From a virus, in the IMG/VR virus record IMGVR_UViG_3300026189_000003, positions 32,001 through 96,000 of that record: 64,000 nt of DNA. One strand, 5' to 3'. The position numbers were made by a program, and so were the translations under genes. Each line of letters opens with the position of its first letter. The stretch's first letter is position 1. The notes beneath the pieces are model-generated. The model had not been told where the DNA came from, made no database searches, and saw nothing but the letters and a program-made list of their open reading frames with translations. Of the stretch, positions 11,301 through 41,283 are shown piece after piece.

Positions 11301-14300
11301 TTACTGAAATAGTAGAACCTTCTCTAATTACAGTTGTTGTATTAGGATCAATCGGTGTACCAGTTTTATCTAAAATTGAATATGTGCTTCCTATGATATC
11401 TTCGATGTTTGCAACAACGCCTAACTTAGGTTTAAATTTTAATTTACTTGCACTTGGAGACAATGCAATAACACTACCAGTTCCCCAACCGCCTATGCTC
11501 CAGAATAAAAATTCTTTTGCACTGTATAACCAGTTAAGAGTTTGACTTGCATCATTGTTTATTTCATCAAATACCCAACCTTCGCTTTCAAGGTGTCTTC
11601 CATAGTTTACTAAGAAGTCAAATACTTCCTGAGAAGTTTTAAATTCAGTTCCATATGGAACAACAACTGTTCTGTTGGCTTCAGTTGATTTATATAAAGT
11701 TGCACTGATGCCACCTTCGGTAGGTACTTCATTTACTGTTACAAAATTCTTTGCAACAAATGATGTGTCAGTAACATGAGGTACTACTGTTCTATAAAAA
11801 TTACCTTCGTATCTAACTAACTGATCTTTTTCTAATGTTTGATTTGGCACGTAAGCACCAACTTTTGATGGTACTCCGCCAACAGATATTGGAACTTGCA
11901 CACCGTTTGGATCACTTACTGTTGTTTTAAAATGACTTCTGCTAATATCATAACCTCTAACAGCAAATCCTTTTTCTGTCTTTTCAACTATAACGCCACT
12001 GTATGCACTATTTTGTATACTTGGACTAGCATGAGTCACGTGTGAAATGTTATTATCTGGAATGTAAACACTTGTTCTAGTAGAATTAGGTGAGTATGAT
12101 TCAGTTTGTGCTCTATAACTTGCAAAGTCAACGAATGCTCCTTGTTTATGAGCTAACTGCGGTTGTACATTTCTTAAAATACCACCATATAAATCTGTAA
12201 TAGATTTGTTTTCATTAATTAATCTCTGAGTAACATATTGCTGATAACCAGTACCACTGAACGTATTAGTTCCTACTGTTTCTCTATCAACATAAACATT
12301 ATTGTTTGGTCGTTTACCTGTATTGAAATCGTATACACTTGTAGTATTGATTTTTGCTACTCTAGAATTCAATGTATCAAAAAACTTTTCATAATATTCT
12401 GCAGGTTTCAGTATTGACATTACTGCTGTTGTACCAAAAGAACTAGCACTGTTAATATAGTATGCTCTTTCACTTGGTGCATTGTCACCAATTTTCCAAT
12501 TCTTTTTAGCTTCATCGACACTTGGATTTCTATCAACTAATCCTAAAGTAAGCGGATCAATAACTTTACCTGATGTGTCAACAGGTACATAACTGCTAAA
12601 GCCTTCGTGCCTGTAAATATTTTCTTGATTTGTATAACTTAAATCTAATAAGTTAGCACGTGAACCTTCTCTAATAATACCTTTCTCGATATCATTAATT
12701 AATAATGCTCTTGCAGAAGATTGCTTCCAGTTATAGTTCCTATCCCACCAATGAGGCTTAATTGAGAAGCCTAACATTTCCCATGGATGCGTATCTAGTT
12801 TGTCTGAACCATAAAACTTTTTATAAATTCCTCTCCAGTGTCCTGCTGATCTATCTCCAAATAAATCTTGCGTACTACTCCAGTTCCATGTTTTCCAATC
12901 ATTTTGATCGTAGCCATTATTTTCAAATATATCTACTTGGTTGTTAACTGCCCATCTGTGAACTTGTGGCGTAATAACATCTGTGTATTCGCTGTATGAA
13001 TAATCTTTTTTATTAAAGTAATTGTCAACAGTACTATTGTATGAAATATCAGGAACATAATCTGGGTCCATGAATCTATTTTCAATATCGTTGTAAATTC
13101 TTTTTTCAATTTCTAGCAATGCTCTATCACGATCATCATTAAATTTAAGTGTTAATGATCCATCATGTCCTTCAATAAATGTTTTTGTTCCTGATGAATA
13201 ACTTGCATCACTAACTTCTCTAGGTAAAAATGCATTCGTCATTCCTAGCTTGGCTGGTGTTGACGGTATCCATGCAGGTTGTTTTGCAGAGAAGTGATAT
13301 ATTTTAATTACATCATTTACATCTGGCTTAGATGCTCCTACGAATATTATTCTAGTTCCTGATGAATTTTCAATAACGTAATCGTTATTCATTGTTAATA
13401 ATTTGTCGTTATTATAAATGTATAATGATTTTATATCTTTATCGTCACGTGGGTTGAATGCATAGCTTATGTCTAATCCAGGTTCACCTATCATTTCTAA
13501 AATATCTTGATAGTTTTGTACTGCTTGACTTTGGCTTTGTGTATTGTTCCAAGTTTTATTTGCACTTGTGATTGTAATAGTTTCTATTTGTGCATTCTTA
13601 CCGTAATTGGCCATTAAGCTGTAAGCCCATTTCTCACTTACTTTTTTATTTGTATTCAATGATTCTAAAACAGTATCAACTAATTTTTGATCAGTCCAGC
13701 TTGTAATATCATTGTCTATAGATACTTGTGTTACTTTTTGTAAAAATTTATTTTTAAATCTAATATAGTCGTCTTGTGCTAGTCTTGTTGACTTAATTAC
13801 ATTTCTATCATTGCTGTTAACATGAGTTAAGAATTTTACTAAAGGTGCACTGTGTTGTAATATTTCTTGTCCTTGTTCGTTTTCTTTTTTCGTATCTCTA
13901 TACGTATTATTTCCTAAAGGTTTTCCAGTTATATCTTCCTGTCTAGAAATAGCTGAACTCATATGTGATAATAAATCACTGTATGAATATTCATCAACTG
14001 GATTGTTCAATGCATTATGTGATAAGTTTTTTGGTAACTGGAATCTTGCTTTCTTTAAGTCTTTAGTTTCAAAGCTATCCCATACTACAAAAACATGGTA
14101 TCCTTTTGTAACATCAGCTGTCATTTTAATTGTTTGATTTTTTTCAATGTTGTAATCAACTTTGAATTCTTGTTCAACATTGTTTACATAAACTTTAACT
14201 TTAGAATCATCAGCAATTAACGATTCTAAAACAAAAGTATTTGCACTTGTATAATCATCAACATTAAAGTTTTGTTCTAAAAGCTGTTTAGATTTTTGTT

Positions 14301-16785
14301 TCGGTTGAACCCATTCTGTTTCATACACAGATGAGATAGAATCAACTAATGTTGAGTTCGCATTATCTACAACTGTTAACTTACCACCCATTCCTGCATG
14401 AGTACCACAGTAATAATATACTGTATCTGGTGTGTTTACATCTGGTGTAAACTCAACTGTTCTTGCTGTTGCTTTATCATACTCTGCTCCATAAAAAACA
14501 GTTTCTGAAACTTGTATGTCATTAATAAAGTATTTTACTTTAGTTGAATATCTTGTACCACTGCCATGTGTACCGTCGGCTGTTGTGCTTAATGCAAATG
14601 GATGTGATCCAGCTGAGTAACCTTTACTTGACAAACTTGAATCAGAAAGATCAAACACATATTTGTTTCCTCTAATCAATATTAAATTTTGTTTCTCAAT
14701 GCTATCAATATAAAATTTATTTCCGGTACTTGCTATACTTGGGTTTGTAATAACTTTTTTGTTAACAGTTGATTGTAAAACATTAGGGTAATTAGTTTTT
14801 TTATAATAAACTAATCCAGAAGTATCATCTAGCTGATAATTTTTAAATTTAATACTACCAACACTAGTATATGTATCGTATGATAATGGAAATCCTAATG
14901 ACGCATCATCAGTTCCTGTACCTACTGTGTAACCAAATAGCTGACTACCGTTAAAACTAGAACTGCTATATTTTGATGAATCATCTAGTACTACTCCACT
15001 GTTATCATATAAATTGTACAATGGTGGCTGATTGAATTTTGTTTTACTTTGTGATAATATCCAAGCATAACCAGTCCAATGATATTCTTTACCAGCATTT
15101 ACTACACCAGATTTAACTGTAATCTTGTCATTGTCAACAATAGTTAATCCAGCAACTTTAGTTAATGAAATACTTGTACCTACTCCACTTACTGTCCATA
15201 TAGAACTAGACACATCAAAGTCTACTCCAGTAATATCCCAGCTCTTGTCTGATGCACCATCTCCATCTGAATCATGATCCCATGGAAAACTATCACCTGA
15301 CCATTCAATCGGTGTTGTTTCAAATGCATTGTTTTGGAATAGTATTGACATACCATTTTCTAAAATTATACCATCAAGTGTGTAAGTACTTTGTCCTTCG
15401 ATGTCTGCTTTAGTTTGTGTTGTTGCTAATAAGTTAACTGTATATTTGTGTACTGCACCATAATTGTACAGTTGAATATCTTTCTTAAATTCGATAATAG
15501 GTCTAGTTGCTTTTTTTGATGCATCAAGTTGAAAAGCTGATTGTTGTAATTTATCTGTAGCGTCAAAATATCCACCGTCATAACCTGTGACATCTGTTGT
15601 TGATACATCCCATGGATGTTCTATCTCAACTAGTTTTTGTAAATTTCTATAACTTGTAATATTGTTTTTATGAACCCAGCCGTTTGTTCTAGACCACGGA
15701 TTGTTATCTTTCGAAGAACGATCGATAGTTATGTAATCATGTGTAGAAAGATCTGCTTGAGTATCCCATTTCTTTTCATCCCAACTAAAACTTACATCAA
15801 CACCTGAAGTTGTTTCTGAAGTAAAATCCCAAGGCTGATTTGTTAAAGTAATATATGATTCTGTGTCTAACACATCTTCATTTACTTGTACTAGTTCTAT
15901 ACCTGTTTCACTGCCTACACCTTCAACATAATATTTTTTATCTTGGTATGCTGGCTCTGTCAAATATGTTTTGTTGAATTCAACTAACATACCAGAACTT
16001 AATTTTATACCATTTGGTGAAGTATATTCTTTAGCACCAACTATTGCAGTAGGGCTGACTTTATGTACAATATTAACTGTATCACTTGCTGATATAGTTA
16101 TACTAGAGTTTGCAAACTCTAAGTTTAATCCTAATGTTTCGTAGTCTGTTGTTACAGTTCCGTTGACACTAACAACGTCTATGCTTGACGTGATAGGGTA
16201 AGATAGAGTAAAAGCCGTCTGTGAAGCATTAGCTGTAAAAGCCTCAACAGATCCTGTAACAACAATAGATGGTAAAAGAGGATCTACACTCGGATACCAA
16301 TAATAGTTTTCGTAGTTGATGAATTTATCATAATCAATTGGCGGTGCATAACTGTAATATTTTTGATCAAATAATCTATTTTGATTATTTGTTTTACCGT
16401 TTTCACTGCTTACATGATTTAGTGCTTCAGTATAAAATACTGCATCAATCGTACTTAACGAATCTGGATTTCTAATTATAAGTGATGGCTCTAATTGATA
16501 GTCACCACGTTGTTTTGTTTTTTCAATTTTGTAGTTGTCTTTTTCTTGAGAAAAGTAAACGTCATCTTTTCTACCAATAAATTCTGATGTTTGAATAGCA
16601 TTAGGAGAACTGAAAAGTTGTTCTACTGTTCCATCAAAAAAGTTTTTTAACTTTGCTGAATGAAATACTTCAGGTAAAAAGTCTAAAGCCTTAAAGTCAT
16701 CTGTAGTACTAACATTAGAAGTATACGTATCGCCAATGTTACTGTTAGATGTTGATGTGAATGAAACGTTAGACTCGTACGCCAT
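5332..16785 (-). CDS. Giant (3817 aa) baseplate wedge / structural protein, gp7-like position
   Basis: Directly downstream of and coupled to the gp6-like gene; multidomain; 'YVNEAKPY' motif near the C-terminus. Confidence 0.7.
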   Translation of the reverse strand: MAYESNVSFTSTSNSNIGDTYTSNVSTTDDFKALDFLPEVFHSAKLKNFFDGTVEQLFSSPNAIQTSEFIGRKDDVYFSQEKDNYKIEKTKQRGDYQLEPSLIIRNPDSLSTIDAVFYTEALNHVSSENGKTNNQNRLFDQKYYSYAPPIDYDKFINYENYYWYPSVDPLLPSIVVTGSVEAFTANASQTAFTLSYPITSSIDVVSVNGTVTTDYETLGLNLEFANSSITISASDTVNIVHKVSPTAIVGAKEYTSPNGIKLSSGMLVEFNKTYLTEPAYQDKKYYVEGVGSETGIELVQVNEDVLDTESYITLTNQPWDFTSETTSGVDVSFSWDEKKWDTQADLSTHDYITIDRSSKDNNPWSRTNGWVHKNNITSYRNLQKLVEIEHPWDVSTTDVTGYDGGYFDATDKLQQSAFQLDASKKATRPIIEFKKDIQLYNYGAVHKYTVNLLATTQTKADIEGQSTYTLDGIILENGMSILFQNNAFETTPIEWSGDSFPWDHDSDGDGASDKSWDITGVDFDVSSSIWTVSGVGTSISLTKVAGLTIVDNDKITVKSGVVNAGKEYHWTGYAWILSQSKTKFNQPPLYNLYDNSGVVLDDSSKYSSSSFNGSQLFGYTVGTGTDDASLGFPLSYDTYTSVGSIKFKNYQLDDTSGLVYYKKTNYPNVLQSTVNKKVITNPSIASTGNKFYIDSIEKQNLILIRGNKYVFDLSDSSLSSKGYSAGSHPFALSTTADGTHGSGTRYSTKVKYFINDIQVSETVFYGAEYDKATARTVEFTPDVNTPDTVYYYCGTHAGMGGKLTVVDNANSTLVDSISSVYETEWVQPKQKSKQLLEQNFNVDDYTSANTFVLESLIADDSKVKVYVNNVEQEFKVDYNIEKNQTIKMTADVTKGYHVFVVWDSFETKDLKKARFQLPKNLSHNALNNPVDEYSYSDLLSHMSSAISRQEDITGKPLGNNTYRDTKKENEQGQEILQHSAPLVKFLTHVNSNDRNVIKSTRLAQDDYIRFKNKFLQKVTQVSIDNDITSWTDQKLVDTVLESLNTNKKVSEKWAYSLMANYGKNAQIETITITSANKTWNNTQSQSQAVQNYQDILEMIGEPGLDISYAFNPRDDKDIKSLYIYNNDKLLTMNNDYVIENSSGTRIIFVGASKPDVNDVIKIYHFSAKQPAWIPSTPAKLGMTNAFLPREVSDASYSSGTKTFIEGHDGSLTLKFNDDRDRALLEIEKRIYNDIENRFMDPDYVPDISYNSTVDNYFNKKDYSYSEYTDVITPQVHRWAVNNQVDIFENNGYDQNDWKTWNWSSTQDLFGDRSAGHWRGIYKKFYGSDKLDTHPWEMLGFSIKPHWWDRNYNWKQSSARALLINDIEKGIIREGSRANLLDLSYTNQENIYRHEGFSSYVPVDTSGKVIDPLTLGLVDRNPSVDEAKKNWKIGDNAPSERAYYINSASSFGTTAVMSILKPAEYYEKFFDTLNSRVAKINTTSVYDFNTGKRPNNNVYVDRETVGTNTFSGTGYQQYVTQRLINENKSITDLYGGILRNVQPQLAHKQGAFVDFASYRAQTESYSPNSTRTSVYIPDNNISHVTHASPSIQNSAYSGVIVEKTEKGFAVRGYDISRSHFKTTVSDPNGVQVPISVGGVPSKVGAYVPNQTLEKDQLVRYEGNFYRTVVPHVTDTSFVAKNFVTVNEVPTEGGISATLYKSTEANRTVVVPYGTEFKTSQEVFDFLVNYGRHLESEGWVFDEINNDASQTLNWLYSAKEFLFWSIGGWGTGSVIALSPSASKLKFKPKLGVVANIEDIIGSTYSILDKTGTPIDPNTTTVIREGSTISVTQDNREPIYFVNLYVREIEHITIFDNETTFLDTIYNPTLSIRQPRIKQTLLRTNDWSGKLEANGYLIDSTKGLVSNFETTTNEMENYLDVDKSVNNENLNSAGLHTIGYQNRTYLDNLEIVDDNQTKFYQGFIRQKGTKNAIDKITRSTKVTQNQNFNMYEYYAFKVGEFGGSDVNQSIEFKIDSNKVKANPQLITFLPKQDGTITTDNLFDNIITIDADDNDTWVKKPKGDKTTANLFTSRTETFEMPTAGYVHANDTTYQVFDKANLLSHYQNNVSTSISLGSTYWVAKDTNLDWNVYRLSTITQTLDSVVSNSPLTVTLNESTGKLATTANATVDYVLPNELDGSNASVITTTHGSKKLQLQLSDQSISKTITFGDFGGANAEIVVDSLADQVAGFVITTAGSGYSVGDTITVSGSGGTGASGTVSSIDGSGGITGITFVKGGGGFYAEPADIVINTGGSPSSGSGAVINLKGNNPTFEINSTLQNTAVNFAVGETVNWSGGSAIVTNAFKKTGGQVVLHIHNNTSTPSVSHTFTGATSGAVTTGSTTVTARSTSASGDTTFGGILSYIVNNGGTGYVSPTFLVSGSVGVGSGAVEHSAGVITSAFSQNPGYGYRKEFTPNADITITVQDTISNGDNKTVTFADNLLKCDSISNVSITINEAWDGTAPQLDVGTSANPDAFKSNQALSGNVVITSLASNITDRSNTAVKVRFHGTNATTGNATVTVNYKKATYNVLDTDGTSTNASAVNSTYLSSNPHPIYVYKDVRLATRNNGIDQADKKANLGATVNHFVSNVCAAITFTDGDQIWIDNGGDSYWYNLKLTSNASVKTAYDNLASNANVNSAITISGKYWIINSDIDYTDTANLSQTLFDGTVRTNKGKSQIDSTLFYKSKISDLGDYNRETEFSLYDPVKNLIPAIAEKEIVFKRLVDPAVYTNHADSSFVTNQEPWGIEQVGQTWWNTSTLKYFEYENYDLEYKQKYWSKLFPGSTIDIYEWTESSNAPASYVGDGTPVSTTNYTAITTTDKQNFQTTKYYFWVKDKTTVPDYDWRLYSTTSIARIIKDPTAFGLNWYAPVDRNSLIVANSTRSITDDSLFTLNYKIMNVDKPSHKQWLMIKENDPSTPVDKRIWNKFTDSLSGKDANNLSVPDTTTLGPLNRYGSSIRPRQTWFKDVKEARRHFAFKLNDLVSTINMDVDYPEWESGFNNSPIYDKSDYYLSGYSNAIVVNRTVDTYSEIDTSTLSDFEVIKVNTDYNNKWAIYIYGPRSEIVSGNAPVSTSSTVSSSDATVSPGSGYSGGEGGGSYSVGSQSEGGEGSGDSSSEKKELVRIANQTSTFKLNTKFYTNDDVSADTRNLMKQLYDYVFAGTNRVNSNELLFAMINYIFAEQENIDWVIKTSYFDVVQDDASLTQLASYTPDTFDFVKDYVNEAKPYSSKLVNYLSKKQPVLESANVDAEDSFTISSSVVFDRVSENVELLSSGTDGQQLAELKKKRTVKDIAQDGRQGDLQAKDNAVERIAKYFFSTELAALDTNDDNAVKVFMATLKKVIAPYKDLELEGFPFGFDKLTDSELVSLLGLDITGFDQSLDWDSDVQQIFYNTLFESAKNWQTGTAYTKDITMNNASQISSNTIVKNDDLTHFTAWSVSNNYDVGAYVKHQGLVYRCNVKHNAVDVSSFDFSKWDYIKDLVYVTSENHTSGTFATDYANNKWSLITTKFDAAGFVRPQHEDNPEELVPTSMKENLTLTVTTAERTAKDVADIDGDGNVTETYGYGDQYTFRIFYSGSGHTEFKRLPKVAETTLSSNIDATVTYIDVADASTLYAELSVKDPDDNSQTIGTIPATVTGTVNDNNPGYIWINQELIEFRKVSGNRLSKLRRGVHNTPIQSHTANDRINSANDQHDIPNATQTARWSAFDPAGSQMIDKTVQATWDAVAWDGTDALWDKASLDPTEQAIFIRAGGNSNFKLYNTTYTEPGYVDNQAGITTGYFSEE

Positions 16786-19700
16786 TAATACTCTCCCACA
16801 GCACCAGAAGTAACTGATCTTAGATTAACTCCTGTTAAACCAGAGACAATCTCTACTTGATTAACTGTGGCAGTACTAAAGAATAGTTCATTACTTCCAG
16901 CTTTGATTTGAAATAGGTCACCAAATTTTGCTTCTGCATCTTTTGGTACAATAACCACACTTGATATCTTACTTGACAACCTAGTATGAATAAAAGCGGC
17001 AAGTTCACTATAATAAAATGTATCACCAAAGTCCCAATTAGAAATAGAAAAGTAACTATTGATTGCTTGAATGATTTCTGTTTTAATTTCGTTATCAGTG
17101 TAATTTGTATTTGGTATCTTAACTACTCTAAAGATAGCTTGATTCTGTTCATCAGCAGTTGGTCCAAATAATAATTTAAATTTAGCTGATGAATAAATTA
17201 ATTGATCACTTATTGATCTATATTTTTCTAATTCACCAACACTGTTTTTAATTTCTTGTGAAGTAGGTTCTGCAGGAAATAATGATCTTGCTTTTCCACT
17301 GCTAAACCAGTTTTGTACATTAGTATAATGTGTTTTATCTAATATAACTAATTCAATAATATTACTTACTGAAGGATCAATTCTTTGTGATCTTGGTGCA
17401 CTGTGTTTGTAGTGAAAATAAAATTTCTCTGCGTCACTAAATGCTCTACCTACAAAAGCCTTGTAAGTTTTTTTATTAGTACTATTATACCCGGCTCTTC
17501 TTGTATAAGATGAACTGTTTACATCATTAACTAATTTGATTGCTGTGTTCTCTACACCTGAACCATTACCTCTGTAGAAAAAGAAGTTGTTGGCCGCTGT
17601 TGAATCAGCTGTTACAAATGCTAATCCGTTAACACTTGAAGCGGCAAGTTTAGTAGTAACTTGCGTAACATCTGAACTTAATTTATAATATGTGTATCCG
17701 TCATAATCAATATAATTTTCAAAAAATACATAATGATTATCACTTATTAAATCATCGTGTGCAATTGGATTGTCTGGTGAACCACTATTGTCAGAGTCAA
17801 TATTTGTTACTTTAATTTTTTTAATATCTACGTAGCCGTCTTGTTCTGTAAAGCTATCTGAAATACTAAATGTAATTGGATTGACTAGTTTCGCCGCATT
17901 GCCTGGATCAGTCAACAATTTAACATCTTTGTTTATGTTTAAAAGTTCTATAGTATCTTGTACTGCTTTACCAGTAGTTGAATCAATATTTTTATAGTCA
18001 CTAACATAAAAGAATCTAACTTCATCTTTACTTTCAAATACGTAATCTAATCCTCTTATAGTAAATTCATATTTTGGAGATGAAGCTGTAGATGCCGCCG
18101 GCACATATTTTGCATAAACCAACCATGAAGTATCACTAGCTAGAGCTTGATATCCTGGTGGAAATTTACTGTTATATGCTACACTAAATTCATTAGTTGT
18201 ATCTAGGTAATCGTCAGCTATAACATACCAGCCTTCTTTTTTAAGACTTGGGTCGTTATAATGATAACCTATTCCAAAGTTTACACCTGCCTGCATCTGT
18301 GTTCTAATAGTTTCTTTTTCTGTTGTCGACAATGCAGTTCTAAAGTTTGGCAATATTTTTCTAATCTTATATCCATTTGTGATTTGCTTATCTAATTGTA
18401 TTGAACCTGCTGTATCTGAATTTGTAACAACACCATTATTTCTTACACTTACTACTGTGGTAAAGATACTTTTTGTTGGTGTTGAATAATCATCTACAAA
18501 TTCTAAAACTGTTCCTGGTCTAATCATACCTAGTTTTTCGTTATTGTTTAATGGATTATTATGTACACCAGTTGCTTGTGAAAATGTTTTATCGGCCGCA
18601 CCTGCAATTACAAAATATCCTGTTTGACTTTGACCCGCACTAGGATATGTTACCCATTCATTTTTCTCAGTACTAGCTGACTGCATAACAAATTGATTTG
18701 CATCATGTGTTGCCTCGACAGCTTTTTTATATGTGTCATAATAATAGTTAGATAATAAATTCTTTTGAATTAATGGTTCTAATATGTTTTCAATTATATA
18801 AGTGTAACTAGTATAATCTACAACCGTACCAGTTATTTCTTCACTGTTTAATGTAAAGTCTGGATTTTTATAAAGTATTCCATCTTCTCCATATACGTTT
18901 ACACTTTTTACTGTTCCTGTAGGATCATTGATATCTAAGTATCTAGAATGACCTATGTGCGTTTTGTTTATAGATTTAATTTTTTGAATTGAGTTACTTT
19001 GTGTTAAAGGAAAAATATTATAATCTTCAGCATTAATCATTCTGTCCTGTGAGTAATAAGACTTAGGAGCATTTTGTTTAATACTAGCATCAGATTCAGT
19101 TGCTTGTGAATTTGAAACAGTATAATTTAATGACAATGATAATGTAAGAATATATTCTTGTCCTTCGTTGTTTTTATAACTTATATTAATCTCTTTGTTT
19201 TGAATTCTGTTTTTTCTTAGTACTTGTCCTTGTCCTGAACTTCTTCTAAACCATACTCTAAAATTTCCTTTAGGAGCAACACCAAAGTTACCATCACTAA
19301 AGTTAATAGTAGCTTTATCATTGTTTTGAGATTGTACTGTAAAAATATTTGTATCACTAATAGCTAAACTATTGTATATTGTATTTTGTCCAAATAAACT
19401 TGGTACCTTTTTCCATTTTTCTAAAACAACTCCGCTGTTAGAAACTTTTTGAACATAAACATCTAGTTCATTAATATTAGATAATGGCAAGTCAATTGAT
19501 CTGTTTGGTACAGGCGAAGCAAAATTATAATCTTCAAAGTTCATTTCACCTTCTTTAAAATATGCAAAGAAGCCATTATTGATACTTGAAAAACCTTGGT
19601 TGTCATTTTTGTAAATTAAATTATATGGCTCTGCTTGGTCTGGATCTTTTTCATAAAAGTATCCATCCGGATGAATATCTGATTTAACAACGTCAATGGA

Positions 19701-20330
19701 TGTATTAATACCATCTATGTTTTCACTAAAATTTTGTATAACTGGTTGAGTCGTAGTACTATTAATATTGTACATCTCAGAAAGTATAGTATTCACTGTT
19801 CCACTTTTAACAGGATCACCAAATTGGTTTGTACTATTGAAAGCACTGTTAAGAATTTGTAACCACTGATCGTACCATTCTGTATTGTTTGCATCGTTCC
19901 ATGTAACATTTGTGTTAGATAAATTTGTTCCTTCTGAATCAACTAAAGGTTCAGTAGTTCTAACTTTGTTAACTTTTAATAATCCTCTTGCTGGAGTATT
20001 TCTTTTTGGTGTGTAGTTTACAAGTTTAGCAAGTTTGATAATGCTATCTCTTCTTTCGGCTGTATCAAAAAAGTTTTCTCTTGAATTTAAATCTGTTCTA
20101 AATGCTAGACTTTGTCCCATGTAAGACAATAAATCTATGATAGCAATAAATTCACTTGATTGAATATAGTCATTGAAATCTTCAGGATAGTTTGTTTGAA
20201 TATAATTCAACATACTTGTTCTGATTGAATCGTAATCGTATGACGTAAAGTCTGCCTGTGTAAAACTTCTATATATTGTTTTCCAATCTTCTGCTGAAAA
20301 TAAATTGTCTTGTCTTTGTATTTGACTCAT
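16785..20330 (-). CDS. gp6: Baseplate wedge subunit (T4 gp6-like)
   Basis: 'DFTSYDYDSIR...YPEDFNDY..SSEF', 'FDTAERRDS..KLAKLVNYTPKR', 'FSDGNFG', 'QDRMINAEDY'. Confidence 0.85.
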   Translation of the reverse strand: MSQIQRQDNLFSAEDWKTIYRSFTQADFTSYDYDSIRTSMLNYIQTNYPEDFNDYIQSSEFIAIIDLLSYMGQSLAFRTDLNSRENFFDTAERRDSIIKLAKLVNYTPKRNTPARGLLKVNKVRTTEPLVDSEGTNLSNTNVTWNDANNTEWYDQWLQILNSAFNSTNQFGDPVKSGTVNTILSEMYNINSTTTQPVIQNFSENIDGINTSIDVVKSDIHPDGYFYEKDPDQAEPYNLIYKNDNQGFSSINNGFFAYFKEGEMNFEDYNFASPVPNRSIDLPLSNINELDVYVQKVSNSGVVLEKWKKVPSLFGQNTIYNSLAISDTNIFTVQSQNNDKATINFSDGNFGVAPKGNFRVWFRRSSGQGQVLRKNRIQNKEINISYKNNEGQEYILTLSLSLNYTVSNSQATESDASIKQNAPKSYYSQDRMINAEDYNIFPLTQSNSIQKIKSINKTHIGHSRYLDINDPTGTVKSVNVYGEDGILYKNPDFTLNSEEITGTVVDYTSYTYIIENILEPLIQKNLLSNYYYDTYKKAVEATHDANQFVMQSASTEKNEWVTYPSAGQSQTGYFVIAGAADKTFSQATGVHNNPLNNNEKLGMIRPGTVLEFVDDYSTPTKSIFTTVVSVRNNGVVTNSDTAGSIQLDKQITNGYKIRKILPNFRTALSTTEKETIRTQMQAGVNFGIGYHYNDPSLKKEGWYVIADDYLDTTNEFSVAYNSKFPPGYQALASDTSWLVYAKYVPAASTASSPKYEFTIRGLDYVFESKDEVRFFYVSDYKNIDSTTGKAVQDTIELLNINKDVKLLTDPGNAAKLVNPITFSISDSFTEQDGYVDIKKIKVTNIDSDNSGSPDNPIAHDDLISDNHYVFFENYIDYDGYTYYKLSSDVTQVTTKLAASSVNGLAFVTADSTAANNFFFYRGNGSGVENTAIKLVNDVNSSSYTRRAGYNSTNKKTYKAFVGRAFSDAEKFYFHYKHSAPRSQRIDPSVSNIIELVILDKTHYTNVQNWFSSGKARSLFPAEPTSQEIKNSVGELEKYRSISDQLIYSSAKFKLLFGPTADEQNQAIFRVVKIPNTNYTDNEIKTEIIQAINSYFSISNWDFGDTFYYSELAAFIHTRLSSKISSVVIVPKDAEAKFGDLFQIKAGSNELFFSTATVNQVEIVSGLTGVNLRSVTSGAVGEY

Positions 20331-32762: not shown

Positions 32763-33953
32763 TTATCGCAATGCTTCTATGTCAAAAGTGTGATCTTTAA
32801 CTTTGTTAAGCCAGTATGACCATTCGCTGTTTCTGATTAAATTGTGTTCGTATTCAAAAACATTTGATAAATTGATTAATGTATTTTGATCTATGTCTTC
32901 TAGAATAGAAGTTCTAGTTATATCACCTATGCAATATTTTACTTCAACGTTTTCTCGAATATGTTTTATAACTTTTAACACATCACTTGTATTATAATTA
33001 TCGAGTATATCGTAGTTTCCATCTTGTAGATCTAAAGTGGTCCAAATTCTACCATTGTATTTTTGATCAAATGTTTGTACAAACTCTTTGTAATTACCTT
33101 CATATGTCTTTATTAATAATTCTGTAAAAATTAATGCAGTTATTGAAACATCATAAAATGTAATTGTTTTAATATCTTCATAAACATTTAATATTTTTTT
33201 TAAACTTTCAACACCGTTAGCAACTGAGATATAGTTACTATGTTTTTTTGCAAACTGTGATTTTCTTGGTGAAGTAGACATTGGATAGTAATAAGAATGT
33301 GGATGCAATTTTTCATATGATAGCATAGAACTTATTTGTTCAGGTATATCATAATAAACAAATTTTTTGATATTTCTTTCATCACCATTGAACGGTCTAA
33401 TTTTATAGTCTTTTTTCAGTAGCTCACTGATAACATGACCTCCAAATTTTAATCTATCAACAGCAAGTGGTGGACGTGTATGATCTGCTTTGACCCACAA
33501 CGGAGTATAATCATGATGCCAATTTTCTTCTGCTCTAACAATATTAGTTAAGTTGTTATGAGATTTAGAATTAAAGTCAGGCTTGCCTACTTGTACCCAT
33601 TGATCTACATTTATAATAAAATGTTGTGGATGTAAATGATAATATCTTTCTTTACGATCTAAAATATGACCAATCAATGCATAGTTTGGTATATCGTCAA
33701 TCATGCTTTTTAAAAAGTTGTTATCAATATGTGCAAAAAAGAAAATGCCTTCTTGTATTACTATTGCATACTTTGTTTCCAAATATTCTAACTGTTGATT
33801 AATATTGTCAATGTCACAGACAAATATTTTATCTTCATCAAAATCGTGTATTAAGTTTTGATAAAAATAATCTCGTATACTGTCTAACAGTCCTTTATTC
33901 TTTAAAATAATTAAACTAAAATTATTGAGTATTGCTTTGGTGCTTGACTGCAT
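32763..33953 (-). CDS. Hypothetical protein, possibly a two-domain modification enzyme
   Basis: 396-aa ORF; no firm motif assignment. Confidence 0.6.
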   Translation of the reverse strand: MQSSTKAILNNFSLIILKNKGLLDSIRDYFYQNLIHDFDEDKIFVCDIDNINQQLEYLETKYAIVIQEGIFFFAHIDNNFLKSMIDDIPNYALIGHILDRKERYYHLHPQHFIINVDQWVQVGKPDFNSKSHNNLTNIVRAEENWHHDYTPLWVKADHTRPPLAVDRLKFGGHVISELLKKDYKIRPFNGDERNIKKFVYYDIPEQISSMLSYEKLHPHSYYYPMSTSPRKSQFAKKHSNYISVANGVESLKKILNVYEDIKTITFYDVSITALIFTELLIKTYEGNYKEFVQTFDQKYNGRIWTTLDLQDGNYDILDNYNTSDVLKVIKHIRENVEVKYCIGDITRTSILEDIDQNTLINLSNVFEYEHNLIRNSEWSYWLNKVKDHTFDIEALR

Positions 33954-34425
33954 CTTTATTATTTTCCCAGAACTGTTTATATTCTACATAACAATAGTTT
34001 TTGTAAGTTTTAGAATGTTTAAGTTCTTGCCACTGTGCTGGATCCCATAAAACAAATTCGCCTTGCCTAGATATTTTAACACACAGTAACCATTTGTCAT
34101 TTGCTTCGCAACTTTCAGATGCTTGTTTGATCCATTCATCTAGCTGTTTAACTTCTCCACCTAGTGCTAATTGATGCCAACGAAACTCTCCGTAATTCTT
34201 TGCTTCAATTACTAGCAAAGGAAAACTGTCAGGCGGGATTATGTCTCCTTTAAATCCTCTTGTTTGGCTTTCAGATAATGTTTCTGTTCTTACAATATTT
34301 TGTCCTCCTACAAAAGCACCCGAGTATGGAACTCTTGTAAATGATTCTTGATATAGTTCAGTAAGAAAGTTTGCTACATCTCTTTCGTATGTTTTTCCTT
34401 TGTTTTTAGATTTAGTTCCACTCAT
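33922..34425 (-). CDS. Holliday junction resolvase-like PD-(D/E)XK nuclease
   Basis: 'SKNKGKTYERDVA', 'RVPYSGA', 'GDI', 'IEAKN'; start chosen at the ATGA overlap with the upstream stop. Confidence 0.8.
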   Translation of the reverse strand: MSGTKSKNKGKTYERDVANFLTELYQESFTRVPYSGAFVGGQNIVRTETLSESQTRGFKGDIIPPDSFPLLVIEAKNYGEFRWHQLALGGEVKQLDEWIKQASESCEANDKWLLCVKISRQGEFVLWDPAQWQELKHSKTYKNYCYVEYKQFWENNKDAVKHQSNTQ

Positions 34426-34757
34426 TTTAATTTCCATTCATATCCAATAGTTAATCCTATATTTTCTTTATCGTACTCATATGCAGGTGCTATAAACCAT
34501 CCTCTATCTGTGTATCTCATAAAAGGTACAACGTCTCCTCCGCTGTATCCAGTTGCTAGACCTATTTCTAATTTTACATACTTGTCTATATCAAATTCTT
34601 TTCCTGCGTATATACTAATTGATTCTTCACTATTATAAAACGCACCAGTTATCGTGTTATCTATTTGACATCTTGCATGAGGATGAATACTATTATAATT
34701 TCCTTCTAGTCCTATGTGCATTGATACTGCCATTAATATTGATAAACAGGTATTCAT
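34422..34757 (-). CDS. Exported, probably outer-membrane beta-strand protein
   Basis: N-terminal hydrophobic signal; amphipathic strands ('GAFYNS', 'GLATGY'); aromatic C-terminus 'GYEWKLK'. Confidence 0.55.
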   Translation of the reverse strand: MNTCLSILMAVSMHIGLEGNYNSIHPHARCQIDNTITGAFYNSEESISIYAGKEFDIDKYVKLEIGLATGYSGGDVVPFMRYTDRGWFIAPAYEYDKENIGLTIGYEWKLK

Positions 34758-35411
34758 TTATTTAAACTGATTTTCTTTTCTTTTGCCTTTAGATATTTTA
34801 CCTTTTCTATTAGCTTTAATTAGCCTTCGAAGATCCTTCCATGATTTGAATTTTCTATCATATGCAACCATTCCAGGAAAGGTACGTCGAAATGCTTCTT
34901 CAATGTCTTCGTCTATTTTTTTCAAAACATCTTTTTCTGGGTATGTGCCCAGATTGTCCCAATCACAAATGTCCCAGTTGTTAATATCTTTCCAGTCACC
35001 GTCGATTATAATATTACTTCTTTCCCAGTCCATGTGTGCATGAGGTGATGTTTCTTTATAATTTTTTAAACAAAACTTTTTATACATATCTCTAAATTCA
35101 ATTGGATCTACGGTTCTTCTGAAAAATCCAGTTTGGAACATTTCTAAAACAGTTACTCCGGGAATTTCTTTGTACTCGCACCATACTTCCGTTTCACTAT
35201 CAGCTTGGTAGTTTAATAGATAGCCAGGCTTTACTTCATTAAGTAATCTCACGTGATAGTTTAACCAACCGACGTGTTTGACTCTATATCCTTGAGTCCA
35301 TTCTTTCCTGTATCTGTTTCCAACCTTGTAAGTTTTTTGAACTTTGTTAGGGTTGGTACCTGTTTTGACTAGTATTTTTACTTCTTCGTAGTTCTTAATT
35401 TCGTCGCTCAT
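34758..35411 (-). CDS. Protein-kinase-like (APH/choline kinase fold) phosphotransferase
   Basis: 'EYKEIPG' hinge, HxDxxxxN ('HMDWERSN') and 'DWD' motifs. Confidence 0.55.
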   Translation of the reverse strand: MSDEIKNYEEVKILVKTGTNPNKVQKTYKVGNRYRKEWTQGYRVKHVGWLNYHVRLLNEVKPGYLLNYQADSETEVWCEYKEIPGVTVLEMFQTGFFRRTVDPIEFRDMYKKFCLKNYKETSPHAHMDWERSNIIIDGDWKDINNWDICDWDNLGTYPEKDVLKKIDEDIEEAFRRTFPGMVAYDRKFKSWKDLRRLIKANRKGKISKGKRKENQFK

Positions 35412-35487
35412 TAAAAAAAATTTCCTTTAGATTTAATGCTATTACTTAATATAATACATTTTTTTAAAAAAAGCAATGGAAAAAAGG

Positions 35488-35517
35488 TTGACTTTAGATA
35501 TATGAGTCCCGTATTGT
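35488..35517 (+). promoter_or_regulatory. Sigma70-like promoter TTGACT-N18-TATTGT pointing into a non-coding region
   Basis: Direct match; a divergent TTGCTT-N17-TATATT (35448-35476, minus) serves 34758..35411. Confidence 0.5.
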
Positions 35518-35524
35518 TACACAC

Positions 35525-35870
35525 TATAGGCACTCTTTAGGCAGAACAGGCAAAACTTAGGCAATATAGCATCTCTACAAGGCGCGAACTACTCTGTAAC
35601 AACAGCGGCGAATCGCATGATGCAAGGCAAGTGTTAACTCAGGCACAAATGATGACAGCTCTGCTAGAAACAGATATGCAACTGTCAGCTTACACGTAAA
35701 CAGCCAACTTTGGGTATGTGTAGGTTCCGTTGGATGAAGCAGGAATTATAGGGGTATCGGCCAACCGCCTCTGCAATGTTCCTCAAGTTGGTATGACGAT
35801 CTCTGGTAATATATCAAAGGTCCCTTCGCCCGGCAACGGGTGAAGTATGGCCAAATCCAGGTAATAGGTA
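35525..35870 (+). ncRNA. Candidate large structured non-coding RNA, family unknown
   Basis: No ORF of 60 aa or more; locally GC-richer; several stems with G-U pairs, a GCAA tetraloop hairpin, an apparent pseudoknot and AGGCA repeats (see findings). Confidence 0.6.
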
Positions 35871-35989
35871 TAAAGAACACATACAACTATCACTTTCTAA
35901 TACGATGTAATTAAAATTTTTGCTTTTAGAAAACTAACGCAGAGCGTTGTACAATAGAGCTTATGCTCTATTCCTACGTAGAAACAATC

Positions 35990-36226
35990 TTAGACAATTG
36001 GTATCATTGATCCTTTGAACTTTTCAACATTATCTTTTATAAACTCCTGTATGACTTTTTTATCTTCATAGGTCAACAGCCAGGCCTGATCGATATTGAT
36101 TGATCCTCTCATGTACCAACATATTTCAGTGATGTTCTTTTTAATGTCTAGTGATTCAGTGGCCAACTCGTCAAAGTAGGTTGCGATCTCAGACGGCGAG
36201 CTTGTGATTAAGAAGTTACGAAAAAA
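35990..36226 (-). CDS. -1 frameshift extension (76 aa) of the tail chaperone, gp51/GT-like
   Basis: Frame RNFLITSSPSEIATYFDELATESLDIKKNITEICWYMRGS...IPIV* opens just before T_TTT_TTC and has no ATG near its 5' end. Confidence 0.7.
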   Translation of the reverse strand, partial: FFRNFLITSSPSEIATYFDELATESLDIKKNITEICWYMRGSINIDQAWLLTYEDKKVIQEFIKDNVEKFKGSMIPIV

Positions 36227-37047
36227 TCCGCAGGATCCAACCTAACTTCAGTTTCAAATTCTTTTTCAGTGTCTGGACAGATAAGAGTTTGTTTAGTATT
36301 AGTGCCTACGGTGTTTAGCTCGTTAATTTTTGCATCAATTTTTTTAGTGTCGTGTGTGGTCGAATTTTCTAAAAACTCTTTGATGTGTTTTGAATCAATT
36401 ACTGCATCGCCTTCTGGCGTTACAATTTTTTGTATACTCTCAACAGTGACGTCAACGTTCAAGTTAGCTAATTTTACAAACATGGATTTGAACTGTTTGG
36501 CCTGTGCGCCATCAATGTCTTCGATGTTTTTAATTGCTTTGGCTTGATCGTATGCTGTAAGATTGATTCTTGTTTGTGTTGAGTAGTTGAAAGGTTTAAC
36601 ATAAACAGAACAACCATTATCTAGTACAACACAATTGGTTTCAGGTATTTCTGTGACCTGTTCCAGAATGTTGTTAAGGTTGATAGAATATGTGGTAGTT
36701 TTGTTTGAATGTGGTGATTTAATTTTTGTTTCCATAAATTCACCATACGTGGCCATTCTTATTGCAATCAGCAACAAGTCCACATCACACACTGGTAAGT
36801 TTATTGGATCTTTGACATTAGGTGCACAACTGCCTACAACTTGTACAACTGCATCACCATTTAATAGTGCATCCGGATTACGCATGATAACTTCATCTTT
36901 ACCAGTCATAGCAAACACAGGTATCTCTCCTGTTACAGCCGAATCCACAACTTCATTGAACTTTCCACGTGACGGGAGTTTCACGTATAATTTTGGAGCT
37001 CTATAAAACTGTTTTAACGGATTTTGATTTTTATCTTTTTGTTCCAT
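36208..37047 (-). CDS. Baseplate hub / tail assembly chaperone (T4 gp26-like)
   Basis: 'NPLKQFYRAPKLYVKLPS.G', 'MTGKDE...PDALLNG', 'LLIAIRMATYG'; divergent from the tape measure gene. Confidence 0.75.
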   Translation of the reverse strand: MEQKDKNQNPLKQFYRAPKLYVKLPSRGKFNEVVDSAVTGEIPVFAMTGKDEVIMRNPDALLNGDAVVQVVGSCAPNVKDPINLPVCDVDLLLIAIRMATYGEFMETKIKSPHSNKTTTYSINLNNILEQVTEIPETNCVVLDNGCSVYVKPFNYSTQTRINLTAYDQAKAIKNIEDIDGAQAKQFKSMFVKLANLNVDVTVESIQKIVTPEGDAVIDSKHIKEFLENSTTHDTKKIDAKINELNTVGTNTKQTLICPDTEKEFETEVRLDPADFFVTS

Positions 37048-39561: not shown

Positions 39562-41283
39562 ATGAGTTGGCGAAAATATTTTAAAGAATACGGTACAGAA
39601 GCTGGAACAAACTCTCCAATAGGGAGTACTTCTACATCAGCAAATAATACCGCTCACAGCAAGTATAACACTTGGTTACCAGAAGTGTATGCTGGTATGC
39701 CGAACAGACGTGAAAGATACTATCAATATGACATGATGGATCTTGACACAGAAATTAATGCGGCGATGGATACTATTGCTGAATTTTGTTCTCAAATAGA
39801 CGAAGAAACAGGTTCACCTTTTAGTATCAAATACAAAGATGAGCCAACTGACACTGAATCAGGTTTGTTAACTGACACATTAAATCAGTGGAACAAAATT
39901 AATCAATGGCAAAAAAGATGCTTCAAGATGGTACGAAACACTATCAAGTACGGAGATCAAATGTTTGTCAGAGATCCACAAACATACAAATGGTATTGGG
40001 TAGATCCAACTACTGTTGAAAGAATTGTTGTTAATGAAGGTAAAGGTAAAAAACCTGAAGCATACTTCATTAAAAATTTAGATCTTAATGTTAAAAATTT
40101 AAATATCACATCAGATGCTTATTCACATTTTAATTCACCGTTGAGCGGTGGTAATCAAGCATTAGGTTCACCAATGTCAGGTGGACAATCAAACAGAGCA
40201 TATCAACCAACAGGACAATCAGCCGCAGGCGGATATGGCGGAACAAGATTTCAAAGAGATGCAACTGTGTATCCAATTGATGCATCACACGTTGTACATT
40301 TAAGTTTAACAGAAGGCATGGATAGATTTTGGCCTTTTGGAATTAGTTTATTAGAACCTATTTTTAAAACTTTCAAACAAAAAGAACTTTTAGAAGATTC
40401 AATAATCATTTACAGAGTACAAAGAGCACCTGAAAGACGTGTGTTCTATATTGACGTAGGTAATATGCCAACATCAAAAGCAATGTCATTCATTGAAAGA
40501 GTTAAAAACGAAATACACCAAAGAAGAATTCCAAACCAAACAGGTGGTGGTTCAAATGTTATGGATGCAACTTACAATCCATTGTCAATGATAGAAGACT
40601 ATTTCTTTGCTCAAACGGCAGAGGGCAGAGGATCTAAAGTTGAAACACTGCCAGGTGGAACACAACTAGGTGAAATAGATGATTTAAGATATTTTAATGA
40701 TAAGCTAATGAAAGGTTTAAGAGTACCAAGTGCGTACTTACCAAGTTCACCAAACGATCCGCAAACTGCATTCACAGATGGTAGAGTTGGTACAGCTTAC
40801 ATTCAAGAATTTAGATTTACGAAGTTCTGTAAAAGAATACAAAACTTCATACAACCTAGTGTTGATAGAGAATTTAAAATGTTCTTAAAACACAGAGGTA
40901 TTGAAATTGATTCAGGTATGTTTGAATTACAATTTAATGAACCACAAAACTTTGGCAAGTACAGACAAATTGAATTAGATACACAGCTAGTTAATATCTT
41001 TAACCAAGTACAACAAGTACCTTACATTAGTAAGAGATTTGCTCTTAAACGTTTCTTAAAAATGAGTGAAGATGAAATTTATGAGAATCAAAGATTATGG
41101 GCTGAAGAAAATAAATCTCAAATGCCAGGTGAAGAAGCTGTTGCAGATGATTTAGGTGCAGTAGGCGGAGCACCAATGCCAGCAAGTGATATGCCAACAT
41201 CAGCAGATGATGTAAGTCCAGATGACGATGGACAGACTTCACCTATACCAGGTGATCAATCAGATAACACAGAAGAAGCTTAA
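39562..41283 (+). CDS. gp20: Portal protein (T4 gp20-like)
   Basis: 'LEDSIIIYRVQRAPERRVFYIDVGNMP', 'EDYF', 'VETLPGG..LGEIDD'. Confidence 0.95.
   Translation: MSWRKYFKEYGTEAGTNSPIGSTSTSANNTAHSKYNTWLPEVYAGMPNRRERYYQYDMMDLDTEINAAMDTIAEFCSQIDEETGSPFSIKYKDEPTDTESGLLTDTLNQWNKINQWQKRCFKMVRNTIKYGDQMFVRDPQTYKWYWVDPTTVERIVVNEGKGKKPEAYFIKNLDLNVKNLNITSDAYSHFNSPLSGGNQALGSPMSGGQSNRAYQPTGQSAAGGYGGTRFQRDATVYPIDASHVVHLSLTEGMDRFWPFGISLLEPIFKTFKQKELLEDSIIIYRVQRAPERRVFYIDVGNMPTSKAMSFIERVKNEIHQRRIPNQTGGGSNVMDATYNPLSMIEDYFFAQTAEGRGSKVETLPGGTQLGEIDDLRYFNDKLMKGLRVPSAYLPSSPNDPQTAFTDGRVGTAYIQEFRFTKFCKRIQNFIQPSVDREFKMFLKHRGIEIDSGMFELQFNEPQNFGKYRQIELDTQLVNIFNQVQQVPYISKRFALKRFLKMSEDEIYENQRLWAEENKSQMPGEEAVADDLGAVGGAPMPASDMPTSADDVSPDDDGQTSPIPGDQSDNTEEA

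Follow-up and report, generated by a model that had tools for sequence, protein, structure and literature searches.

A double-pseudoknot RNA predicted in T4-like marine jumbo phages and its possible relation to the gene 32 translational operator

Introduction

Gene 32 is the textbook case of autogenous translational control, and the T4 gp32 protein prefers A/U-rich unstructured RNA, of which it covers approximately 7 nt. Regulatory proteins are also titrated by small RNAs, such as CsrB and RsmZ for CsrA, CrcZ for Hfq/Crc and 6S RNA for RNA polymerase. In the T4 gene 32 operator, a pseudoknot precedes a stretch of over 40 nt with UUAAA/UAAA repeats and the ribosome-binding site; each of the two parts is required, and the binding of gp32 is cooperative (PMC535899). 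Four non-coding RNAs defined by RNA-seq ('lncRNAs') have been annotated in phage PA5oct (PMC7318152), and a bulk catalogue contains more than ten thousand viral RNA candidates from IMG/VR (PMC10690425).

The locus described here lies in a stretch of 64,000 nucleotides (the window) from an IMG/VR viral contig that is 107,640 bp long and has a GC content of approximately 34%; the window covers contig positions 32001-96000. A preliminary description based on the letters of the window had proposed a pseudoknotted non-coding RNA at this site. Like GOLLD and ROOL, whose function is unknown, and like the PA5oct RNAs, the RNA is phage-linked, driven by a promoter, ORF-free, structured and several hundred nucleotides long, and it matches neither the GOLLD nor the ROOL models. 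With the gene 32 operators of T4 and RB69 it has a common layout, in which a folded element lies beside an unstructured stretch of more than 40 nt that contains short repeats. In this study, we analysed the distribution, the predicted fold and the repeats of this RNA and weighed its possible roles.

Results

As judged from homology and covariation, a structured non-coding RNA of approximately 360 nt is encoded by an autonomous gene at window positions 35524-35885 (+), which corresponds to 67.5 kb of the contig. Its 5' end was placed near 35524 from the position of the promoter and its 3' end is set only by the limit of conservation (conserved ...ATACA); no intrinsic terminator was found 3' of the RNA. 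The promoter detected by a consensus scan at 35482-35517 (+) is of the sigma70 type (host type), with an extended element AAAAAGGTTGAC at 35482-35493 in the −35 region, an 18-nt spacer and the −10 hexamer TATTGT at 35512-35517. It includes the TTGACT-N18-TATTGT sequence (35488-35517) that had been noticed in the preliminary description. All 21 aligned relatives have exactly the same AAAAAGGTTGAC block, whichever the orientation, and a −10-like element comes after it. Promoters of the GGTTGAC type occur in nine forward copies and no reverse copy in the contig.

A search for ORFs of at least 60 aa in six frames left 35412-36207 as the only internal gap of at least 300 bp in the window, which agrees with the earlier statement that this is its sole long ORF-free stretch. 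The right part of the gap (35990-36166, −) is a small conserved ORF belonging with the gp26 gene, and the truly ORF-empty part is 35412-35989. The GC content was rightly described as higher than that of the flanks (44-47.5% over 35500-35900 vs approximately 32% around). The neighbourhood comprises a PDDEXK/RusA-type resolvase gene (33922-34437, −), a gp26-type baseplate hub gene (36208-37047, −) and a gp20 portal gene (39562-41283, +). A local minimum of GC skew at the locus is accounted for by the switch of gene orientation. The T4-like flanking genes, the matches of the portal protein to jumbo phages and a complete 328-kb relative together point to an uncultured, T4-like marine jumbo myovirus as the source of the contig.

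Relatives of the locus were gathered via the portal protein, which provided 80 loci, while the gp26-like protein used as a query matched patterns with no relative confirmed. By nhmmer and blastn, the RNA element was found in 21 of the 80 portal loci with 70-84% nucleotide identity over window positions 35480-35880, and the neighbouring proteins (e.g. the 782-aa ORF) diverge to 23-40% identity in the same relatives. A pattern derived from the core had 35 matches in IMG/VR, of which 33 are true copies and two (L086 and L114) chance matches within coding DNA, and 118 in marine metagenomes, all on contigs of at least 1 kb, of which 68 belong to the family and 50 do not. The family thus delimited comprises approximately 90 distinct homologues from IMG/VR and marine metagenomes, all of them in T4-like jumbo myoviruses related to Pseudomonas phage PA5oct, including the complete 328-kb genome, which has terminal repeats. 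The core pattern had no match in 185,579 GTDB genomes, which gives no indication of a copy in cells or prophages, and none of 50,697 records of GenBank phages matched the locus at the DNA level by blastn.

The slot occupied by the homologues is constant, with the PDDEXK resolvase gene on one side and the gp26-like hub gene or its module on the other. The cassette alone is inverted in nine loci, and in six more the inversion extends to the resolvase gene. In the window, the RNA converges on the gp26 operon; relative to the PDDEXK gene it is divergent in some relatives and tandem in others, and no gene is consistently co-located with it. The independent inversion of the cassette indicates that the RNA is a self-standing unit and not the leader of a fixed downstream gene. 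A cis-regulatory leader or riboswitch, which requires a fixed co-oriented position, was rejected because the cassette alone is inverted and its orientation to the neighbours varies.

Beyond these relatives, a covariance model of the core (R1) matched weakly (14-22 bits) in a clade with a portal protein of 56-58% identity, and the matches occupied exactly the slot described above. Read by eye, the RNAs of this distant clade are larger (approximately 450-500 nt) and have the same core, both pseudoknots with other letters and the 5' repeats. Three freshwater or estuarine variants carry a hairpin inserted inside P5, and pseudoknot 1 is retained in them by compensatory changes.

Among cultured phages, the portal protein is closest to those of the jumbo phages PA5oct (54% identical), Phosso and Atu_ph07. 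The matching slot of PA5oct contains a GGTTGACA-N17-TATAAT promoter followed by approximately 0.9 kb of GC-richer DNA annotated with ORFs of 39-50 aa only. The single R1 candidate in the 287-kb PA5oct genome lies in this slot; it is weak (18.8 bits, E 0.02) and has no evident pseudoknots. The four annotated PA5oct ncRNAs are at 8.3, 22, 103 and 246 kb, i.e. away from the slot. Phosso has an unannotated gap of approximately 1 kb after the resolvase gene in the matching slot, where R1 had no match, and R1 gave nothing above noise on this Sinorhizobium phage or on Vibrio phage 2.275.O.

The comparative test of the predicted fold by covariation was decisive. Over 25 distinct sequences, 94.8% of the cells of the 52 proposed pairs (both pseudoknots included) were paired, vs 34-44% in controls with the partner slid by 1-3 columns. 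Changes on both sides were found in 30 of the 52 pairs, and none of 500 shuffles reached the observed values. RNAalifold predicted 56 pairs from 18 sequences, 29 of them with compensatory changes. All-against-all column covariation was swamped by clade structure and was replaced by a stacked-helix scan. The folding energy of the single sequence was unremarkable vs shuffles (z = −0.72 for the plus strand and +1.15 for the minus strand). The conservation and covariation in relatives, by which the preliminary description had proposed to judge the RNA, were strongly positive. The selection at the RNA level on the plus strand which it had suggested is borne out by invariant G-U pairs (e.g. 25/25 at one P6 pair), which are compatible with this strand only.

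According to these data, the predicted fold consists of a variable P1 domain and the hairpins P2 and P3; two pseudoknots lock P3, P5 and P6 into a compact core, and the hairpin P7 lies 3' of it. All pairings read by eye in the preliminary description (GCATC/GATGC, TGACAG/CTGTCA, CTTACACGTA/TATGTGTAGG, TAGGGG/CCTCTG and the hairpin at 35824-45) were found where it had placed them. The P1 domain (35569-35623, +) is closed by GCAUC 35569-73 and GAUGC 35619-23, a helix that is 100% paired and covaries in two of its five pairs (AU/GC, AU/UA); its internal helices vary in size by clade, and the inner ones covary. In the P2 hairpin (35653-35687, +), UGACAG 35653-58 pairs with CUGUCA 35682-87 around a loop of approximately 23 nt. 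Four of its six pairs covary; in the MAFFT alignment, the L051 clade is out of register by one column here. The P3 hairpin (35689-35724, +) is formed by CTTACACGTA 35689-98 and TATGTGTAGG 35715-24, with seven of ten pairs covarying, and its loop is the 5' strand of pseudoknot 1.

Pseudoknot 1 (35704-35791, +) joins CCAACUU 35704-10 with AAGUUGG 35785-91. It corresponds to the interaction of loop 35703-10 with 35785-92 postulated earlier; all cells are paired (100%), six of the seven pairs covary, and it is retained with different sequences in the divergent loci L231, L279, L070 and L057. Two elements are additions to the preliminary description. The helix P5 (35742-35782, +), in which GGAAU 35742-46 pairs with GUUCC 35778-82, encloses P6 and is 100% paired with four of five pairs covarying. 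Pseudoknot 2 (35729-35765, +), which was revealed by the stacked-helix scan, is formed between the P6 loop, where CCAAC occupies 35761-65, and the invariant GGUUCCGUUGGAUGA, which contains the complementary GUUGG (35729-33). It is also 100% paired and occurs in three compensated sets: GUUGG/CCAAC, GUCGU/ACGAC (L036) and GUUGA/UCAAC (L056, L057). P6 itself (AGGGG(U) 35750-55 / (G)CCUCU 35767-72, +) is 100% paired, with two of five pairs covarying and one invariant G-U. The most conserved letters of the whole RNA are those of the core, GGUUCCGUUGGAUGA and the GGCCAACC loop, and not the repeats.

The 3' domain (35793-35866, +) consists of the P7 hairpin (35824-32 / 35837-45) and flanking single strands. 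P7 is 96% paired and three of its nine pairs covary. The hairpin as such had been recognized before; the GNRA loop assigned to it (35833-36) is present in some members only. On either side of it runs a conserved single strand of the type UAUGRC...GGUAAU (35793-35812 and 35847-35866); the two resemble each other and, as read from the alignments, shift jointly between clades (GGUAAU to GUAUGAU).

The RNA had been described as possibly new and as neither a tRNA, a tmRNA, RNase P RNA nor an intron, and both statements agree with our searches. No match at the gathering score was found over the 64-kb window with the 4227 models of Rfam release 15, which include tmRNA, RNase P, group I and group II introns, GOLLD, ROOL, HEARO, 6S and riboswitches. 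A permissive Rfam scan of 35300-36300 (E up to 10) gave only two matches at chance level (E 4.7 and 5.4), RT-6 with 13.9 bits (threshold 46.7) and bxd_1 with 12.7 bits (threshold 75). ARAGORN found no tRNA or tmRNA in the window.

The RNA resembles tmRNA, RNase P RNA and group I introns in its size (approximately 350 nt) and in having pseudoknots. A tmRNA with a tag ORF was rejected: there is no tRNA-like end, the frame after a conserved AUAGCA is not kept, and the stretch concerned forms covarying helices. The order of the elements P3, PK1, PK2, P5 and P6 corresponds neither to the P3-P7 order known from group I introns nor to RNase P with its P4, and a group I intron was also dismissed for the absence of flanking exons and of an Rfam match. 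A DGR template or a retron RNA was dropped, as there is no second copy of the stretch in the contig, and so was a TnpB/IscB guide RNA, as the flanking ORFs lack domains of this kind. The RNA family is real and widespread and appears undescribed; we found no described family and no paper on it. Since the bulk catalogue of viral RNA candidates (PMC10690425) may contain it as an unnamed entry, 'new' is used here in the sense of a new RNA family.

The motif AGGCA occurs six times in 35528-35645, each time unpaired, which is the densest cluster in the contig (mean 0.7 per kb). The 5' single-stranded array (35528-35572, +) has AGGCA at 35528, 35539, 35548 and 35559 and a degenerate AGCA at 35568, with a spacing of 9-11 nt; it is unpaired in the consensus fold, and such arrays are conserved in the relatives. 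The other two copies (35625 and 35641) are in the single strand J1/2 (35624-35652, +) together with the conserved AAAUGAUG. Among 25 RNAs, the number of AGGC(A/U) units was 3-7 (mean 4.3) vs 0.7 in shuffles (0.5-0.9), and almost all units were within the first approximately 50 nt and the J1/2 linker, which are unpaired segments.

The second-densest AGGCA cluster of the contig (contig positions 99,829-99,875, outside the window) is in the 5' leader of a gene for a gp32-like single-stranded DNA-binding protein (SSB). This gene starts at contig position 99,882, has its own leader and lies approximately 32 kb from the RNA gene; its product matches the Pfam gp32 model with E = 1e-5 and 26.1 bits, slightly below the curated cut-off of 26.8. 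In three divergent genomes, namely the contig of the window and two others (one of 242 kb and a complete one of 328 kb), non-coding chains of at least three units are present only in the RNA and in the gp32 leader, and the chained units are always on the transcribed strand. Most of 80 gp32 leaders from IMG/VR (55-92% protein identity) have a promoter, a hairpin and 2-6 tandem AGGC(A/U)AAYAU units. These 10-nt units run into the Shine-Dalgarno sequence AGGAGGC(A/U). Nine of the 80 leaders have no AGGC(A/U) unit, only GGCA variants.

Alignment of the RNA array with the gp32 leader of its own genome gave a score of 30 vs 17 ± 2.3 after shuffling (0/500 shuffles reached it). Similarly, J1/2 and the start of P2 aligned with the gp32 ribosome-binding region and first codons with a score of 23 vs 14.3 ± 2.4 (reached by 6/1000 shuffles). 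The clade that has AGGCUAA in the RNA has AGGCUAA in the gp32 leader too. In a distant genome (G005), the repeats of the gp32 leader are without AGG (CUAAYAUC type) and the RNA has few units; this difference of the repeats means that the link between the RNA and gp32 weakens with distance. The gp32 leader of PA5oct has no AGGC units. A repressor of the RegA type (PF01818) was found neither in the three genomes with the chained units nor in PA5oct, a search in which the control genomes were equally silent.

Discussion

The closest parallel to the RNA is the gene 32 operator of T4. The unstructured segments of the RNA, the 5' array of approximately 45 nt and the 29-nt J1/2, flank P1 and carry six units. 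The two systems also differ: the operator of T4 is a cis element of the gene 32 leader, whereas the RNA is a separate gene without a downstream coding sequence; the repeat units are AGGC(A/U)AAYAU here and UUAAA/UAAA in T4; and the folded part, a 28-nt pseudoknot in T4, is here a domain of approximately 250 nt with two pseudoknots. The possibility that the RNA is the gene 32 operator itself was rejected, as it sits outside the gene 32 leader and its ribosome-binding site. Protein-titrating small RNAs are alike in having several accessible copies of a motif which is also present at the ribosome-binding region of the regulated mRNA. The motif here is AGGC(A/U) (GGC) and not the A(N)GGA of CsrB and RsmZ, so CsrA does not fit, and there was no Rfam Csr/Rsm match. 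Unlike in the sponge RNAs, the units are in open strands and not in hairpin loops, a big pseudoknotted domain is attached and the RNA is phage-encoded.

Of the functions offered in the preliminary description (scaffold, sponge or ribozyme), the sponge gains indirect support from the AGGC(A/U) units common to the RNA and the gp32 leader. The most likely role, which we put forward tentatively and at somewhat less than an even chance, would be that of a trans-acting mimic or decoy of the gene 32 translational operator. The gp32 leader with its hairpin and repeats would be the counterpart of the T4 gene 32 operator. The RNA would display the repeats of this leader in trans and would thereby bind whichever factor recognizes them in the leader, in the simplest case the SSB. 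Until single-stranded DNA appears, it would serve as a decoy or reservoir, raise and buffer the SSB pool and relieve the repression of the gp32 mRNA. The core with its pseudoknots may nucleate the binding, shield the RNA from nucleases, or both. We know of no phage for which an autoregulatory circuit tuned by an operator-mimicking RNA has been described.

A more specific form of this proposal, which is attractive but rather doubtful, is that the RNA is a trans copy of the operator. The duplicated 5' end of gene 32, comprising the leader repeats, the ribosome-binding region and the first codons, would have been fused to the double-pseudoknot domain, and the RNA would store SSB, set its free level and release it to single-stranded DNA at the start of replication. 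The G/C-containing 10-nt unit may alternatively be bound by another, sequence-specific protein instead of the SSB. A sponge role fails to explain the elaborate and nearly invariant double-pseudoknot core.

This core may instead be the functional centre of the RNA, as a ribozyme, a scaffold for a ligand or protein, or part of a ribonucleoprotein, with no relation to gp32; the repeats would then be a generic unstructured 5' element of two abundant transcripts, serving, for example, stability. We consider this a serious possibility, although we lean against it. The peak of conservation in GGUUCCGUUGGAUGA and the GGCCAACC loop argues for it, as does the persistence of the core in the distant clade in which the repeats fade. 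Double-pseudoknot cores are typical of ribozymes and aptamers, and the T4 gene 32 leader is a known stabiliser of mRNA. A generic stabiliser would, however, suit other abundant transcripts as well, whereas chained units are confined to two loci in three genomes; moreover, no model of a known ribozyme or riboswitch matches, and a consistently co-located gene is lacking. That the repeats act in DNA, as direct-repeat operators with a period of approximately 10 bp on one face of the helix, bound by a phage transcription factor at both promoters while the RNA has another role, appears improbable. The spacing of 9-11 bp and the position of both arrays just downstream of sigma70-type promoters would suit such operators, but the array of the gp32 leader is in phase with the Shine-Dalgarno sequence and merges into it. 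Two further units of the RNA lie beyond P1 in the unpaired linker, the units keep to the transcribed strand, and the T4 gene 32 operator as the closest parallel is translational and acts on RNA.

A short mRNA or a dual-function RNA for a micropeptide is very improbable. The only small ORF, of 16 codons, extends from the ATG at 35650 to the TAA at 35698-35700, with AGG 5 nt upstream of the ATG, and an ORF of 16-17 codons with the same stop is found in the clade of the window (the window, L022, L030, L014, L016, L021 and L026). In the L029, L036 and L051 clades, however, the ORF is frameshifted or ends after 8, 27 or approximately 48 codons owing to indels whose lengths (7 nt and 4 nt) are no multiples of three, while the helices are kept; since the ORF is broken in three clades that retain the fold, coding is not the conserved function. 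In addition, residue changes track compensatory pairs (e.g. Leu/Pro along a P2 strand), and most of the conserved RNA is outside the ORF. We give a similarly slight chance to a transcript of a replication origin, a primer or R-loop RNA like those of T4 oriF and oriG or ColE1 RNA II, which would recruit SSB via the repeats. It would be consistent with a strong early-type promoter on a non-coding transcript, with the position next to the resolvase gene at a switch of gene orientation, and with the repeats connecting the RNA to the replication protein gp32. No sequence mark of a DNA-unwinding element is present, however; inversion of the cassette would flip the direction of the fork, origins do not need a conserved double-pseudoknot fold, and the change of gene orientation suffices for the GC-skew minimum.

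Large new RNA folds with strong covariation are rare, and earlier cases proved to be ribozymes, riboswitches or unusual assemblies. The RNA described here combines two pseudoknots supported by covariation, a nearly invariant core and a wide spread in marine jumbo phages with no known relative. If the decoy idea is wrong, the core would still be a candidate ribozyme or aptamer. If it is true, an RNA layer would be added to the management of replication proteins by giant phages; that a phage RNA and an mRNA operator compete for the operator's repressor is a concrete and testable idea.

Neighbourhood of the RNA gene

Two adjacent hairpins (35937-35975) lie between the structured RNA and the convergent gp26 operon, and this pair is retained only in those relatives which have the same orientation. 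Since a T-run follows the first hairpin when it is read on the minus strand, this hairpin probably terminates the gp26 operon. The structured RNA gave no sign of an intrinsic terminator of its own. The 58-aa ORF located directly after the gp26-like hub gene (35990-36240, minus strand) is present in all relatives, with 45-71% identity.

The 111-aa ORF (34422-34757, minus strand), which has a weak match to a PHROG entry annotated as PagP-like, is missing from the close relatives. In the distant relatives L048 and L050 it is 90-92% identical, whereas the other proteins of these two are 25-80% identical, which suggests that this small gene was moved by recent lateral transfer. The minus strand also carries a back-to-back pair of very long ORFs, one of 3817 aa (5332-16785) and one of 1181 aa (16785-20330).

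The gp32 leader and the matching slot in cultured phages

The gp32-like SSB gene has its 5' leader outside the window on the same contig (G000:C1:99768-99881, corresponding to 769-882 of locus L127). This leader contains the promoter TTGACT-N17-TATACT and a hairpin, after which four or five AGGC(A/U) units follow with a period of approximately 10 nt and reach into the Shine-Dalgarno sequence. This layout of promoter, hairpin and repeats is kept in most of 80 related gp32 leaders, which carry 2-6 units each; perfect 10-nt tandem repeats represent the extreme form among them. The leader looks like a gene 32 operator in the style of phage T4 with a different repeat unit.

In the cultured jumbo phages PA5oct (L115:5797-6750, i.e. 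MK797984.1 75796-76750) and Phosso (L330:1127-2140, PV764938.1), the matching slot between the resolvase gene and the gp26 module is ORF-poor and its GC content is above that of the flanks. The PA5oct slot opens with the promoter GGTTGACA-N17-TATAAT and gave one weak match with R1, the covariance model of the RNA core, and the Phosso slot consists of about 1 kb that lacks annotation and contains many hairpins. Both slots may encode large RNAs which have remained unrecognised in these phages.
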